Below are positions 20,189 through 29,616 of a DNA stretch of 64,000 nucleotides, one piece after another. The position numbers and the translations under genes were made by a program. The number at the start of each line of letters is the position of its first letter. Positions within the stretch are counted from its first letter, which is position 1. Source of the stretch: Deltaproteobacteria bacterium (GTDB lineage Bacteria; Myxococcota_A; UBA9160; JAFDDA01); assembly GCA_019311105.1 (NCBI GenBank), contig JAFDDA010000001.1, positions 325-64,324 on the forward strand, read 5' to 3'. The notes beneath the pieces are model-generated. The model was not told where the DNA came from, did no database searches, and worked only from the letters and a program-made list of their open reading frames with translations.

Positions 20189-21499
20189 TCATTCGAGACG
20201 GTCGGGTTGGAGGGTCGAGCGGGCCGCGACGAGGATCACGATGGCGACGAGGGTCAACAGGCCGGCGATCAGGAAGCAAGCGCCCAGCGAGAAGACCTCG
20301 GGTTCGAGCCCGCCGATTCGCATGCCCTCGGGGAGCCGCGGCGCGAGCCAGCCGCCGAAGTTCCCCATCGTGTATCCGCCCCACATGGGCCCGACGATTC
20401 GGCCCGTCGTAATCATCGACTGGCTCTGCGCCAGGAGTTCCCCGGCCTGACCCGTCTTGCAGGCCTTCGAGTAGAGGCTCGCCAGCGAGGGGAAGGAGAG
20501 CCCGTTGCCGATCGCGACGACCGGAGCGAGGAGATAGATCCCATCGAGGGAGTGGAGGAAGGGGATCACCGCCATCCCCGCTGCCTGGATGAAGAGGCCG
20601 CCGATCGCCAGGTTCCATTCGCCGGCGAGGGGCGACAGGCGGCCGAGCAGCCAACCCTGGGTCAGCGCCATCCAAATCCCGATCCAGGCGAACACGAACC
20701 CGGCAGCGCGCGCGTCCGCGTCGAACCGGTCGAGCAGGAAGAGGGCGAACATCGACTCGAGCACGGCAAAGGCCGCGAAGAGATGAAAGAAGAGATAGAG
20801 GTAGATGCCGACCCGGCGGCCGTGGTCGGCCAGGAGGACACGGACCGGCGTCGGGACGAGAAGGCGCACGAGCTCCCGCGCCCGCCACGGAGCGCGGTCG
20901 CCGGCTCGCGATTCGGGGAGCATGAAGAAGGCGGCGGAGAAGTTCAGCGAGGACACCAACATCACGAACGCGAAGGGGATCCGGATGTCGTCCTTGCCGA
21001 GGATCCCGCCGAGGGCCGGCCCGATCACGAAGCCGATCCCCATCGCCGCGCCCAGCACGCCCATCCCGCGCGCGCGTTGGGAGGGGGGCGTCAAGTCGGT
21101 GACGACCGCCTGGGCGGTCCCGAGGCTCGCGGCGAAGAAGCCGGCCATCACTCGGGAGAGGTAGACCCAGGTCATGGACTCGATGTGGACTGCGTAGATC
21201 AGGACTCCGTAGGCGATGGTCGTGCCGGCCAGGGAGCCGAGGATCGCAGGCCGCCGCCCCAGGCGATCCGACGCCCAGCCCCACAAGGGCAGGAAGATCA
21301 GCTGAGTCAGCGCGTAGACGGTGACGATCAGGCCGATCTCGAACGGGGTCGCGTGTAGCTTCTTGGCGAATGTCGGCAGCAACGGAACGAGCAGCGTGTA
21401 GCCAGCGAAATCGATCAGCATCGTCACGAAGACGATGGGCATCGCCCAACGCTCGCGGCGCGACCTCGTGTCGGGTGCGTCGGTTCCGGGGGCGTTCAT
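20189..21499 (-). CDS. MFS transporter (drug:H+ antiporter / Tet-like)
   Basis: GWASDRLGRRP motif A and a 12-TM pattern. Confidence 0.9.
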   Translation of the reverse strand: MNAPGTDAPDTRSRRERWAMPIVFVTMLIDFAGYTLLVPLLPTFAKKLHATPFEIGLIVTVYALTQLIFLPLWGWASDRLGRRPAILGSLAGTTIAYGVLIYAVHIESMTWVYLSRVMAGFFAASLGTAQAVVTDLTPPSQRARGMGVLGAAMGIGFVIGPALGGILGKDDIRIPFAFVMLVSSLNFSAAFFMLPESRAGDRAPWRARELVRLLVPTPVRVLLADHGRRVGIYLYLFFHLFAAFAVLESMFALFLLDRFDADARAAGFVFAWIGIWMALTQGWLLGRLSPLAGEWNLAIGGLFIQAAGMAVIPFLHSLDGIYLLAPVVAIGNGLSFPSLASLYSKACKTGQAGELLAQSQSMITTGRIVGPMWGGYTMGNFGGWLAPRLPEGMRIGGLEPEVFSLGACFLIAGLLTLVAIVILVAARSTLQPDRLE

Positions 21500-21589
21500 C
21501 GCGGACCGGAGGGGCCCTGTGCTCCGGGGACGTTCATCGCGGACCGGAGGCTGTCATCAAGGGGTCTGCACGGGACAGGAGGCTGTCAT
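21496..21589 (-). promoter_or_regulatory. chain of three overlapping mini-ORFs in the MFS leader, built from tandem repeats
   Basis: Minus strand: MTASCPVQTP* (21589-21557), MTASGPR* (21557-21534) and MNVPGAQGPSGPR* (21537-21496). Each stop overlaps the next ATG (TGATG, ATGA, ATGA), and the last overlaps MFS ATG 21499. The repeat units are 21485-21512/21523-21550 (28 nt, 1 mismatch) and 21546-21558/21578-21590. Confidence 0.45.
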
Positions 21590-24152: not shown

Positions 24153-25622
24153 CTAGGAGCGGGGCAGGGTGAGGTGGAAGGCCGCGCCTTCGCCCGGGCG
24201 GCTCTCGACCCAGACACGCCCGCGCTGGCTCTGGGCGATCTTCTTGACGATCGCGAGGCCGATGCCCGTGCCGCGGCGGCCGTCGGCGCGCGGGCCGACG
24301 GTTTGGAACAACTCGAAGATCCGTTCGCGTTGCGAGGGCTCGATGCCGCGCCCGTTGTCGCGGACGACGATGCGATGCTCGTCCGGGTCTTCGTGGACGT
24401 CGATCGTGATCGTCGCGCCGTCCACCGGGCCCATGTAGTCGAGGGCGTTGCCGACCAGGTTCGAGAAGACTTGGTAGAGCCGCGTGCGGTCGCAGAGCAC
24501 CACGATGGGATCTTCGGGAAGGCAGAGCTGCACGGCCTGGGCTTCGAGGCGCGGTTTCATCTCGGCGTGAAGTTGATTCAGGACGTCCGAGAGGTTCACG
24601 TGGGCCTTGTGGTCGTGGGTGCCGCCGATGCGCGAGAGCTCGAGGAGGTCGTTGATCAAGGCCTCCATGGCGTGGCCAGCATTCTCGATGCGATCGAGGA
24701 AGTGCCGCGCCGTGTCGTCCATGCCCTCGGCATACTCCTGGTGGAGGAGGCGCGAGAAGCCGAGCAGCGAGACGAGCGGCGAGCGCAGATCGTGGGTGAC
24801 GTTCTGGACGTAGTGCTCGAGCTCGGAGTTCTTGCGGCGTAGATCTTCAGCGACGTTGCGTCGTGCGGTCTGGTCATGGAGCAGGATGACGCTGCCCTTG
24901 GCGCTGCCGTCCGCGATCCGCAGCGCGCTCGCTGCCACGGTGACGAAGCGCGGCGTGCCATCGGTGTGGCAGAACTCGATCTCGTGATCGTCGGGCAGGT
25001 CACCGAGGATCGCGGAAGCCAGCTCCCCGGTGCTCCCCGCAAGCATGGCCACCGGCTTGTCGATCAGCGTGGCCGCCGTGTGCCCGAGCAGGCCTTCGAT
25101 GGCGGGGTTCGCGTATTGGACGAAGCCGCGCGGGTCGACGGCGAGCACCGGGACGGGCGAACTCTCGAGGATGGCGGACAGGAACTCGGCGGTCTCGCGC
25201 AGCTCGCGGTCGCGCGTCGCGCGCTCCGAGAGCGGGCGCACGATGCCGACGAACAACGGCACGCCCGCATCGATGGAAGGGATGCGAACGCCGTCGACTT
25301 CGACCGGCACGCGCAGCCCGTCACAACCGAGCAGCTCGGCCGGTGCACCATGGACTTGCCCGTCGCGTGCGAAGCGGCGGCGAATCTCGTCGAGCTGTGC
25401 GACATCGGCGAAGTAGTCGTGGCCGGGGAGGCCGGCCTTCCAGCCCGTGCTTCCGTCGAGGTCGTCCTCGCCGCGTAAGCGCTCGAGTTCTTCGCTCATC
25501 CAGATCACACGCCCGTCGGCATCGGCCACAAACACGGCTTGGTGTAGCCGGGCGAGCCCCTCCAACACCGCGCTAGCGGGAAGATTCTGGAGAGCTGCGA
25601 GAAGTGTGGGTGAATCGGACAT
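24153..25622 (-). CDS. cytoplasmic PAS-PAS sensor histidine kinase
   Basis: H-box VTHDLRSPL, N-box GNALDY, and DNGRGI and GTGIGLAIV boxes. ATG 25622 (MSDSPTLLAALQ) is chosen over the track start 25658. Confidence 0.9.
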   Translation of the reverse strand: MSDSPTLLAALQNLPASAVLEGLARLHQAVFVADADGRVIWMSEELERLRGEDDLDGSTGWKAGLPGHDYFADVAQLDEIRRRFARDGQVHGAPAELLGCDGLRVPVEVDGVRIPSIDAGVPLFVGIVRPLSERATRDRELRETAEFLSAILESSPVPVLAVDPRGFVQYANPAIEGLLGHTAATLIDKPVAMLAGSTGELASAILGDLPDDHEIEFCHTDGTPRFVTVAASALRIADGSAKGSVILLHDQTARRNVAEDLRRKNSELEHYVQNVTHDLRSPLVSLLGFSRLLHQEYAEGMDDTARHFLDRIENAGHAMEALINDLLELSRIGGTHDHKAHVNLSDVLNQLHAEMKPRLEAQAVQLCLPEDPIVVLCDRTRLYQVFSNLVGNALDYMGPVDGATITIDVHEDPDEHRIVVRDNGRGIEPSQRERIFELFQTVGPRADGRRGTGIGLAIVKKIAQSQRGRVWVESRPGEGAAFHLTLPRS

Positions 25623-25647
25623 CTTCGGGGTGAGTCGGACATCTTCG
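25608..25647. repeat. 20-bp tandem duplication covering the kinase start codon
   Basis: GGGTGAATCGGACATCTTCG followed by GGGTGAGTCGGACATCTTCG (1 mismatch). Each copy carries CAT, which is ATG on the minus strand. Confidence 0.8.
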
Positions 25648-27561: not shown

Positions 27562-28052
27562 TGAGCAAGCTCACCCATCTCGACGCCGAGGGGCGCGCCC
27601 GCATGGTGGACGTCGGAGGCAAGCCGGTGACCGAGCGCGAGTGTGTGGCTCGGGGCCAGGTGCGCATGGCAAGCGTTACCCTCGACGCCATCCGCGAGGG
27701 CAAGATCCTGAAGGGCGATGTCTTCGCGACGGCTCGGCTCGGAGCGATCCAGGCCGCCAAGCGTACCCACGAGTGGATTCCGCTGGCCCATCCGCTGCCG
27801 CTCGATCTCGTAGACGTCGAGCTCGTGCCCGACCCGGGGGCCGAGGGCGGGCCCTGCGTCCGGATCGAGGCCATCGCCCGGGCCACCGCGCGGACCGGTG
27901 TCGAGATGGAGGCCCTGGTCGCTGTAACCGCGGCGGGCCTCGTGGTCTACGACATGTGCAAGGCCATCGACCGGGGCATGACGATCGAGGCCGTCCGCCT
28001 GGTTCGGAAGCAAGGCGGCAAGTCCGGAGAGTGGGCCCGCCCCGGGGAGTGA
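27561..28052 (+). CDS. moaC: cyclic pyranopterin monophosphate synthase
   Basis: [21 protein letters not shown]...[11 protein letters not shown]...TGVEMEAL...VYDMCKA. The ATG overlaps the upstream TGA by 1 nt. Confidence 0.92.
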
Positions 28053-28124
28053 ACCCTCGCCGGGGTGGGGAAAACCGTTGCCGGGGGAGTGAACCCCCAG
28101 CGAATATGCGGTGTCCGTAGGGAG

Positions 28125-28778
28125 ATGAGTACCTCGGTGGGTCACCAGATCGTGGAGCGAATTCCGTCCAGGCGCCCGGCTGTCGACTCGGCCGCGGACC
28201 CCGATGCCGAGCTGATCGCCCGCTGGCACGCGGGCGACCAGGCCGCGTTCGAGACGCTCGTTCGCAACTACCAAGACCGCGTGTATCGCCTGCTCTATCG
28301 GATGCTCGGCAGCGCGGCCGACGCCGAGGATGCCTCGCAAGAGACCTTCCTGAACCTGCATCGTCACGGGCATCGCTTCCGGGGCGACGCGCGCTTTTCC
28401 ACCTTCGTCTATCGCGTGGCGGCGAACACGGCGCTCAACCGCCGCCGCACGCTCGGCCGCACGCGTGCACGCATCGAGAAGTTGGCCGAGCGCCAGGCCA
28501 CCGGCCACGACCTGCCCGAGGCGCCGCCCGGGCCCGAACAGTCCACGCTTCGCAGAGAGCTCCAACGGCAGGTCCACGAGGCGCTCGCGACCCTGCCCGA
28601 CAAGCTGCGGCTGCCACTCGTGCTGTTCGACATCGAGGGTCTGCCCTACGCCGAAGTCTCCGATGTTCTCGGCCTCGCCGAGGGCACCGTGAAGTCCCGC
28701 ATCCATAGAGCCCGAAACGCGCTCCGCGACCGGCTGGCGCCGGAGTTGGAAGCGCTCGCGACAGAGAGCCCGTCATGA
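28125..28778 (+). CDS. ECF (sigma-70 family) RNA polymerase sigma factor
   Basis: Region 2 FETLVRNYQDRVYRLLYRMLGSAADAEDASQETFL and region 4 EGLPYAEVSDVLGLAEGTVKSRIHRAR. Start is uncertain: ATG 28125 or GTG 28065. Confidence 0.85.
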   Translation: MSTSVGHQIVERIPSRRPAVDSAADPDAELIARWHAGDQAAFETLVRNYQDRVYRLLYRMLGSAADAEDASQETFLNLHRHGHRFRGDARFSTFVYRVAANTALNRRRTLGRTRARIEKLAERQATGHDLPEAPPGPEQSTLRRELQRQVHEALATLPDKLRLPLVLFDIEGLPYAEVSDVLGLAEGTVKSRIHRARNALRDRLAPELEALATESPS

Positions 28779-28817
28779 ATCACCCGCTCGCGACAGAGAG
28801 CCCGTCATGAATCACCC
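28754..28817 (+). repeat. exact 32-bp tandem duplication of the sigma-stop/anti-sigma-start junction
   Basis: GCTCGCGACAGAGAGCCCGTCATGAATCACCC occurs twice, back to back. Confidence 0.9.
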
Positions 28818-29616
28818 GGAAGTCCGACGACGCATGGGAGAGTACCTGCAGGGCGATCTGCCCCTGGCACAGCGGGCGCTCTTCGATGCCCACCTCGATG
28901 GCTGCGAAGCCTGCGCCGCAGACCTGCACGCGCTGCGCGAAACGGTCCACCTCTTACGAGACCTCCCCAGCCCCGAGGTGCCGCCGCATCTGGCTGACCG
29001 GATCGTCGCCCGCATCGAAGACGGCGAGGGGCGAGCCCGTTGGTGGGATGGCCTGGCCGCCTTCTGGGATTGGATCGACCCGGCGCGCTACCTGCCGCCG
29101 TTGGCCGCCGCCTCGCTCACCTCGGCGGTCTTGATCGTGGGCGTGCGCGACTACGGATGGCAGATCCCGGGCACGCTGCCGCCGGCGAGTGTCGAGCAGG
29201 CGGACGGGTTCGTGGATTCCGGGCGCTTGGAAGAGGCGCCAGACCTCCGGATGCAGCCGCGTCTGCGGCCGCCCGGCCGAGCCGTGACCGCGTCGGACGC
29301 CGCCGAAGAGCCCGCGCGCCGGATGCGCGTCCTCGGGGCGGCCCCGGCGGCACAGCCCGCAGCAGCCCTCGAGTCCGCTGCGGCTCTCGAGCTCGTCGAG
29401 GAAGCCGACGTGATCGACGACCCCCACCTCTTCCTCGAGCGGTATCGCGCGCTTCAAGAAGAGCGCCGCGCCGCCTGGTTGGCCCAGATGGCCGAGCGGG
29501 CTGCGCGGGGCCGAAAGGTGGAGGCGGTGGCACGGCGCTTGAGGGAGGACGCGGGGCCCGAGGGCCGCGCGCTGGCGGAGCAGTTCGAAGCCGTCGCCTA
29601 CCCGGCGGGCCGCTAG
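28807..29616 (+). CDS. anti-sigma factor (zf-HC2, single TM)
   Basis: HLDGCEACAADLHAL zf-HC2 motif, a central TM (LPPLAAASLTSAVLIVGV), and a position directly after the ECF sigma gene. Confidence 0.8.
   Translation: MNHPEVRRRMGEYLQGDLPLAQRALFDAHLDGCEACAADLHALRETVHLLRDLPSPEVPPHLADRIVARIEDGEGRARWWDGLAAFWDWIDPARYLPPLAAASLTSAVLIVGVRDYGWQIPGTLPPASVEQADGFVDSGRLEEAPDLRMQPRLRPPGRAVTASDAAEEPARRMRVLGAAPAAQPAAALESAAALELVEEADVIDDPHLFLERYRALQEERRAAWLAQMAERAARGRKVEAVARRLREDAGPEGRALAEQFEAVAYPAGR

Follow-up and report, generated by a model that had tools for sequence, protein, structure and literature searches.

The window, a stretch of 64,000 nucleotides, is part of contig C174 of a MAG (G000) that comprises 258 contigs and 4.76 Mb, with a completeness of 90% and a contamination of 4%. 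Among named database proteins, the nearest ones belong to Myxococcota MAGs. At the locus discussed here, the gene of an ECF sigma factor is followed on the same strand by the gene of its anti-sigma factor (Table 1). These identities were proposed in the first-pass annotation and are borne out by Pfam: the sigma factor holds Sigma70 regions 2 and 4 only, the adjacent gene encodes an N-terminal zf-HC2 domain, and the matches lie above the curated Pfam cut-offs, as is characteristic of ECF sigma/zf-HC2 pairs. Read from the ATG at 28125, the sigma factor has 217 amino acids, although this start is uncertain, with other gene callers giving 213 or 224 amino acids and alternative starts being present in the cluster members P0243 and P0244. 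Its C-terminus reads ...LEALATESPS and is closed by the TGA at 28776-28778, while the anti-sigma ORF beginning with the ATG at 28807 reads MNHPEVRRRM... An N-terminus of the form MNH[PQSR]E, or a later internal Met, was found in 24 of 24 close homologues of the anti-sigma factor, and an N-terminal extension in none of the 24. The pair lies 3' of moaC, and this gene order is conserved across the relatives in the order. At the moaC stop, upstream of the sigma gene, the sequence GGGGAGTGAACCC is repeated after about 39 nt (window 28024-28100), and the GAACC motif within it could be a candidate -35 element of an autoregulated ECF promoter, which would then itself be duplicated.

Table 1. Features of the sigma/anti-sigma junction, with positions in the window.
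Feature	Position	Strand	Evidence and remarks
ECF sigma factor gene	28125..28778	+	Pfam Sigma70_r2 1.3e-18, Sigma70_r4_2 3.9e-17, Sigma70_ECF 6e-6
Perfect tandem duplication, 32-nt unit x 2.06	28753..28818	+	TRF and sequence
Copy 1	28754..28785	+	3' end of the sigma gene (7 codons and the stop), the ATG that overlaps this stop, and 11 nt from the beginning of the anti-sigma frame
Weak Shine-Dalgarno-like purine run, AGAGAG	28763..28768	+	6 nt before ATG1; putative function
Predicted mini-ORF MNHPLATESPS, 11 codons	28775..28810	+	Three-frame translation
Copy 2	28786..28817	+	Same as copy 1; contributes the functional anti-sigma start region
Anti-sigma factor gene, 269 aa	28807..29616	+	zf-HC2 at residues 5-37, Pfam PF13490 2.1e-9

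Between the two genes, the unit GCTCGCGACAGAGAGCCCGTCATGAATCACCC occurs twice head to tail, the join of the copies reading …AATCACCCGCTCGCG…, and each unit contains the ATGA in which the sigma stop and the anti-sigma start overlap. TRF called the repeat with a period of 32, 2.1 copies, 100% matches and a score of 132, which, together with a reading of the sequence itself, confirms the perfect tandem copy noted at this junction in the first-pass annotation. The exact self-match of 66 nt has a self-alignment score of 64, compared with a maximum of 23 in 200 shuffles, and cannot be attributed to chance. At the border, two extra bases (CG) match, which is no more than expected by chance. A search with the 171-nt junction against the 4.76 Mb of G000 returned only the self-match, the unit being present once in the genome, in agreement with the earlier description of a locally generated repeat. 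Both proteins are unaltered by the duplication, and the anti-sigma gene retains a complete initiation region. An RNA element at the junction was considered and rejected, as there was no Rfam match at E<=1 and the folding energy was no better than that of shuffles (z = 0.4 with two copies and 1.4 with one copy); promoter-like or terminator-like sites were likewise not found at the junction.

The duplication creates a chimeric mini-ORF, MNHPLATESPS, whose two ends were given correctly in the first-pass annotation, as three-frame translation shows. Its ATG lies within the ATGA at 28775-28778, which contains the sigma stop, and its own stop at 28808-28810 lies within the ATGA at 28807-28810, which opens the anti-sigma gene, so that all three co-oriented ORFs are connected by stop/start overlaps of 4 nt. 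The arithmetic behind this is also as annotated. In an ATGA with the ATG at position x, the TGA lies at x+1, and a copy of length L places a TGA at x+1+L, which is in frame with the first ATG only when L = 3n+2. A unit of 3n+2 thus yields a relay mini-ORF, a unit of 3n an N-terminally extended anti-sigma factor, and a unit of 3n+1 an out-of-frame ORF that crosses the anti-sigma start. Given an ancestral ATGA junction and a 3n+2 unit, the copied upstream ATG automatically opens the 11-codon bridging ORF, and since a relay is the outcome in one of three duplications of any ATGA junction, it is by itself no sign of design. An open frame of 10 codons is, moreover, expected in DNA with 70% GC. The AGAGAG purine run is inside the unit and recurs at 28795-28800 before ATG2; the contexts of ATG1 and ATG2 are therefore identical, with the same 21 nt upstream and 10 nt downstream, and the initiation region of the anti-sigma gene is complete. 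At the equivalent site, relatives have GGAGAG or GGAGAA, and compared with their GGAGAG the weaker AGAGAG would make coupling matter more in the window.

Of 19 relatives at the order level, 13 join the two genes by a 4-nt NTGA overlap, as do all 10 additional orthologues from metagenomes and all single-copy close relatives (P0003, P0006, P0009, P0013, P0015, P0017 and P0020), while a few order-level relatives have short non-overlapping spacers such as TGAgaacGTG or TGAgcgATG. The sigma tail after IHRAR is typically 20 amino acids long, which corresponds to the one-copy state of the window, and together with the usual NTGA overlap this indicates that the ancestral junction had one copy. A close set of 14 lineages with about 75-89% sigma identity was used for the detailed comparison, and in this set neither an uncoupled spacer nor an expanded junction lacking both a relay and read-through was found. 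The last bases of the sigma gene in P0004 and P0005 are GTCATGA, and the ATG within them opens a 12-codon ORF (MIPTETEAEKPS and MIQPAKRAEKPS, respectively); the two ATGs are 35 nt apart, and both ATGA overlaps have been kept. In P0005, the beginning of the mini-ORF can be recognised as a copy of the anti-sigma start (CGTCATGATCCAACCCGCGAA vs CGTCATGAATCACCGCGAA, p = 0.03), and this junction form is present in two samples. Over the 39-nt interval, P0004 and P0005 differ by nine substitutions, eight of them in the middle, and by no indel, while 30% of the third codon positions differ in the flanking genes; the P0004 sigma tail has a further internal duplication of 15 nt (GAES|AGSES). In P0016, found in one JGI contig and one Logan contig, the sigma gene ends on ATCATGA and a 10-codon ORF, MIDRPGAERT, ends with TGATGA on the anti-sigma ATG, the interval being 32 nt. 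These three mini-ORFs of 12, 12 and 10 codons are located at L025:2166-2203, L064:1851-1888 and L026:2181-2215. The first-pass annotation would have been contradicted by relatives with two copies and a disrupted mini-ORF; instead, the mini-ORF and both overlaps are intact in P0004 and P0005 (35 nt) as well as in P0016 (32 nt). The peptide itself is not conserved among the relatives.

Other members of the close set carry in-frame duplications of the sigma tail with the direct ATGA overlap kept, namely 24 nt in G001 and P0011 and 33 nt in P0002; L030, whose tail is about one codon longer and whose ATGA overlap is kept, groups with P0002 as an in-frame tail duplication. The expanded junctions are self-similar (p = 0.005-0.1), except for the P0016 relay (p = 0.65), whereas none of the single-copy control junctions showed self-similarity. 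In a tree built from the codon alignment, the expanded junctions fall into two clades, one with the window, P0004, P0005, P0002 and L030 (support 92/92) and the other with P0016, G001 and P0011 (support 100/98), with six single-copy lineages outside them. A single 32-nt ancestral duplication common to the window and G001, with 8 nt later lost in G001, was rejected because the in-frame 24-nt tail duplication of G001 (GAAGCGCTCCGAGGGGAGAG and GAATCGCTCGGTGCGGAGAG, p = 0.005) fits better. A common origin of the window event and the 35-nt event of P0004 and P0005 is unlikely in view of their different unit borders, since the duplicated stretch covers 15 nt or more of the anti-sigma gene in P0005 and 10-11 nt in the window. 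The copies in the window are identical despite its long terminal branch, and together with the differing borders this makes the window duplication most simply a separate and recent event; in evolutionary terms, it is very recent. Overall, the predicted outcomes at these junctions fit a filter for duplications that preserve coupling, in a comparison with small numbers: excluding the discovery case, there are two relay events, both 3n+2 (p = 1/9). Since a relay is expected in one third of events, the open frame is expected, and the P0016 copies are not significantly similar, the statistics argue weakly for selection acting on the relay.

Comparable relays occur elsewhere in G000. Where a duplication has copied the start codon of a long, coding-like ORF, seven credible relay cases were found, including the sigma junction, with units of 38, 35, 23, 32, 35, 35 and 17 nt. 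The other outcomes in this set are about seven upstream ORFs that overlap the start out of frame, two that stop short of it, and two or three in-frame extensions. Where the copied start was of the ATGA type, 3n+2 relays resulted in seven of ten cases, or in six of nine without the sigma junction (binomial p about 0.04). At C164:10405-10506, an exact 38-nt unit is present in 2.7 copies, and the relay mini-ORF MSPGRATSRERTA followed by a stop occurs twice before the real gene with its ATGA-type start; at C203:23631-23665, an exact 17-nt unit in 2.1 copies places the mini-ORF MSLETP before a real gene that also has an ATGA-type start. A cascade of three mini-ORFs lies on the minus strand of the window at 21496-21589 (MTASCPVQTP, MTASGPR and MNVPGAQGPSGPR, each closed by a stop), connected by the overlaps TGATG, ATGA and ATGA, the last on the start of a transporter gene, and built from diverged nested duplications. 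Non-relay outcomes were also observed. At C114:24396-24499, a MiaA-like gene has its start region duplicated exactly, with a unit of 52 nt (3n+1), which provides an upstream ATG whose out-of-frame ORF extends 245 nt into that gene. A 20-nt, 95%-identical duplication of the ATG of a histidine-kinase-like gene on the minus strand at window 25608-25647 (C174:25932-25971) has an upstream ATG opening an out-of-frame ORF that overlaps the gene start by 118 nt.

At a looser threshold of at least 85% identity, G000 contains 291 tandem arrays (for example C164:10405-10506, C199:11969-12067, C197:2598-2673 and C70:21232-21303), the periods of which peak sharply at 32-36 nt (21, 25, 12, 13 and 10 arrays, 81 in total, and none at 37); about 100 local tandem arrays have units of 30-36 nt. 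The 112 arrays with periods of 28-38 nt are 85-100% identical, one third of them with three to five copies, and have no common sequence beyond GC-rich 11-mers. As their units are unrelated, they represent copies made locally rather than members of a repeat family; a dispersed family was rejected on this ground and on the uniqueness of the junction unit in G000. Border microhomology in 60 exact arrays corresponds to chance (24, 20, 10, 3 and 2 observed vs 30.8, 17.5, 7.4, 2.8 and 1.0 expected), so the microhomology beyond chance that marks slippage is seen neither genome-wide nor in the 2 nt at the sigma junction. Perfect arrays are rarer inside genes than random positions assigned with the same classifier (17% vs 45%), and the periods of the 70 perfect repeats favour multiples of three (34:12:24 by period modulo 3); this gene depletion and 3n preference are what selection on real mutations would produce. 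An enrichment of ATGA in the perfect units was not significant (11 observed vs 7.3 expected). Arrays of at least 20 nt with non-3n periods amount to 22.7 per Mb in G000, with 0 in 400 kb of G001 and 0 in 200 kb of G013; 200 kb of G040, from the same order, contain three, two of them with a period of 32, and the class of about 32 nt may thus occur elsewhere in the order. The preference for 32-36 nt looks like a ruler. Cas1-type staggered nicking and Ku-dependent fill-in were discarded as its source, as a search of the 90%-complete MAG yielded neither Cas1 nor Ku nor a CRISPR-like array. Joins at k-mer overlaps are not favoured as the source of the size peak either, since the perfect arrays do not have a single sharp length and many arrays are 85-99% identical or have three to five copies.

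The reading we prefer, with a probability of about 0.62, is that the junction carries a genuine, recent local duplication produced by a lineage-wide process, that the resulting relay keeps the two genes coupled, and that the copy is tolerated at the gene border. The event would have copied 32 nt, namely the sigma tail with its purine run, the ATGA overlap and 11 nt of the anti-sigma gene. Ribosomes that finish the sigma gene would then re-initiate at the mini-ORF and, after termination 33 nt downstream on the anti-sigma ATG, once more at that ATG, so that coupling would be retained via a two-step relay and the output of anti-sigma relative to sigma would drop at most modestly. The source would be a process that acts throughout the lineage and generates blunt local duplications of about 32-36 nt, with selection presumably removing most intragenic copies and tolerating copies at gene borders that preserve stop/start overlaps, in the form of relays or in-frame tail extensions. 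The present copy would be tolerated because neither protein is changed and because the start region of the anti-sigma gene and the continuous series of overlaps are preserved.

It has to be considered whether the true genome contains one copy and the tandem copy stems from the assembler or from a chimeric read. For the class as a whole there is some reason for this concern: perfect tandem repeats with periods between 15 and 63 nt number 70 in G000, compared with no perfect repeat of at least 19 nt in 400 kb of the complete genome of a sister species; their borders are blunt and without microhomology; and they accumulate near contig ends, with 16 repeats at no more than 600 nt from one, where about 4.5 are expected. 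Between 9 and 17 of the 70 (12 by a stricter classifier) shift the frame of conserved genes by exactly the period modulo 3, the affected genes including those of CoaBC, the RND pump, the ABC transporter and the GlpD-like enzyme; several of these frameshifts are in conserved or essential genes. Perfect duplications of 19-40 nt that cause frameshifts in mid-gene were observed at C90:46721-46760, C135:26846-26892, C184:4509-4566, C2:2473-2552 and C176:3583-3628, in the genes of CoaBC, an RND pump, an ABC transporter, a GlpD-like oxidoreductase and a nitronate monooxygenase-like protein, and represent either private deleterious mutations or assembly errors of the species-representative MAG. The duplication in the RND gene is absent from the sister assembly P0241, in which the gene is intact at about 99.8% identity. 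With some exact copies shifting the frame of conserved genes, part of the short-repeat class of G000 may be assembly error. The sigma junction itself, however, is found with two identical copies in two further assemblies from other samples, L022 (JGI 3300033154, 29 kb) and L023 (JGI 3300033151, 2.4 kb), metagenome contigs that both encode the exact anti-sigma protein. Compared with the window, L022 has one substitution in 6.8 kb and L023 three in 2.4 kb, all outside the junction; these differing SNPs identify them as separate assemblies, consensus sequences of closely related populations, and a random error would not arise repeatedly at an identical position. Furthermore, the sigma-junction duplication is probably carried by the very sister population that lacks the RND duplication, and the diverged arrays of 32-36 nt, which include the junctions of relatives obtained with different assemblers, cannot come from an assembler. 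The duplication is therefore probably real, and we regard an assembly artefact at this junction as very unlikely.

Two further explanations accept the duplication and differ in what it does. The relay might be an adaptive device, in which the extra re-initiation lowers the anti-sigma/sigma ratio or a variable copy number tunes it in a VNTR-type or phase-variable manner, which would make it a functional analogue of MIRUs. The same region of about 60 nt was duplicated repeatedly, in about six events in 14 lineages, the relay geometry was long retained in P0004 and P0005, and the purine run weaker than the GGAGAG of relatives would render anti-sigma translation more dependent on coupling. Copy-number variation, for which the first-pass annotation proposed a comparison, was not seen, however, as the window, L022 and L023 all have two copies, which, with three closely related assemblies, is a weak test. 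The lack of conservation of the mini-ORF peptide and the relay being a one-in-three by-product of unit length also speak against a device, and with about 100 similar duplications of about 33 nt, many at unrelated gene borders, a general mutational process with a selective filter explains the junction at least as well as a regulatory device and suffices for it. A device thus appears quite unlikely, and a lower anti-sigma output from the added re-initiation step is conjecture drawn from the geometry. Conversely, the mini-ORF might not be usefully translated, with the anti-sigma gene uncoupled and started independently at its own duplicated ribosome-binding site. The sigma stop now lies 28 nt upstream of the anti-sigma start, the unit holds the complete upstream context of that start, so that de novo initiation is possible, and the non-overlapping spacers of a few order-level relatives show that strict overlap is not obligatory. 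However, ATG1 has the same context as ATG2 and in addition sits on the sigma stop, for which reason it should initiate at least equally, and no close relative has an expanded junction that dispenses with both relay and read-through; uncoupling is in our estimation distinctly improbable. The tolerated, coupling-preserving duplication thus remains the preferred explanation. As an extension of it, a ruler-like process with blunt copies of about 32-36 nt, combined with selection for 3n+2 at ATGA, could conceivably build up series of overlapping mini-ORFs and turn the relays at this junction into an evolvable dial of the sigma/anti-sigma ratio, an idea that we consider speculative and rather unlikely.

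Sigma factors and anti-sigma factors need a controlled ratio, which overlapping stop and start codons are assumed to secure. A junction that was duplicated repeatedly within one clade, and in which the overlaps were always kept, represents a natural test of the coupling constraint, and its one-copy, two-copy and diverged forms are ready-made constructs for reporter assays. The excess of blunt duplications of about 33 nt would, if real, suggest a mutational mechanism that has not yet been described; in the case of a partial artefact, it is a warning about the quality of this species-representative MAG.

Among known systems, the first-pass annotation called the repeat MIRU-like, and this comparison is apt as a functional analogy only. 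As summarised in the 2025 review PMC12548453 (from Supply et al. 1997), MIRUs are short tandem units between co-oriented genes, and their ORF overlaps both the stop codon before it and the start codon after it. According to that review, they constitute a family of related, dispersed sequences with the behaviour of mobile DNA, and the coupling of their ORFs at -4 nt allows insertion with minimal effect on expression (PMC12548453). The likeness lies in the internal ORF of the sigma junction, which overlaps both the flanking stop and the flanking start. In contrast to a dispersed mobile family with many related copies, the sigma-junction unit is a local copy that is unique in its genome and unrelated to the other arrays, and whereas the copy number of MIRUs varies between strains, it is two in all three assemblies here. 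Termination-reinitiation at ATGA and bicistronic designs, in which a short leader ORF hands ribosomes on to the next gene, share with the junction a stop that overlaps a start and a short ORF without a conserved peptide, but here two junctions are chained by a fresh duplication, and the coupling is predicted from their geometry. The domain content and gene order are those of other ECF sigma factors paired with zf-HC2 (ZAS-type) anti-sigma factors, from which only the junction differs, the proteins being unremarkable. An exact head-to-tail copy of tens of bases is also what slippage or flap mis-processing produces, but the borders are without excess microhomology and the lengths cluster at 32-36 nt, which simple slippage does not predict. 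The locally generated coupling relay is, as a variant, new, its coupling being a prediction from sequence, and if the ruler-like process and the selection for 3n+2 versions were true, such relays would be a self-generated, non-mobile counterpart of MIRUs.
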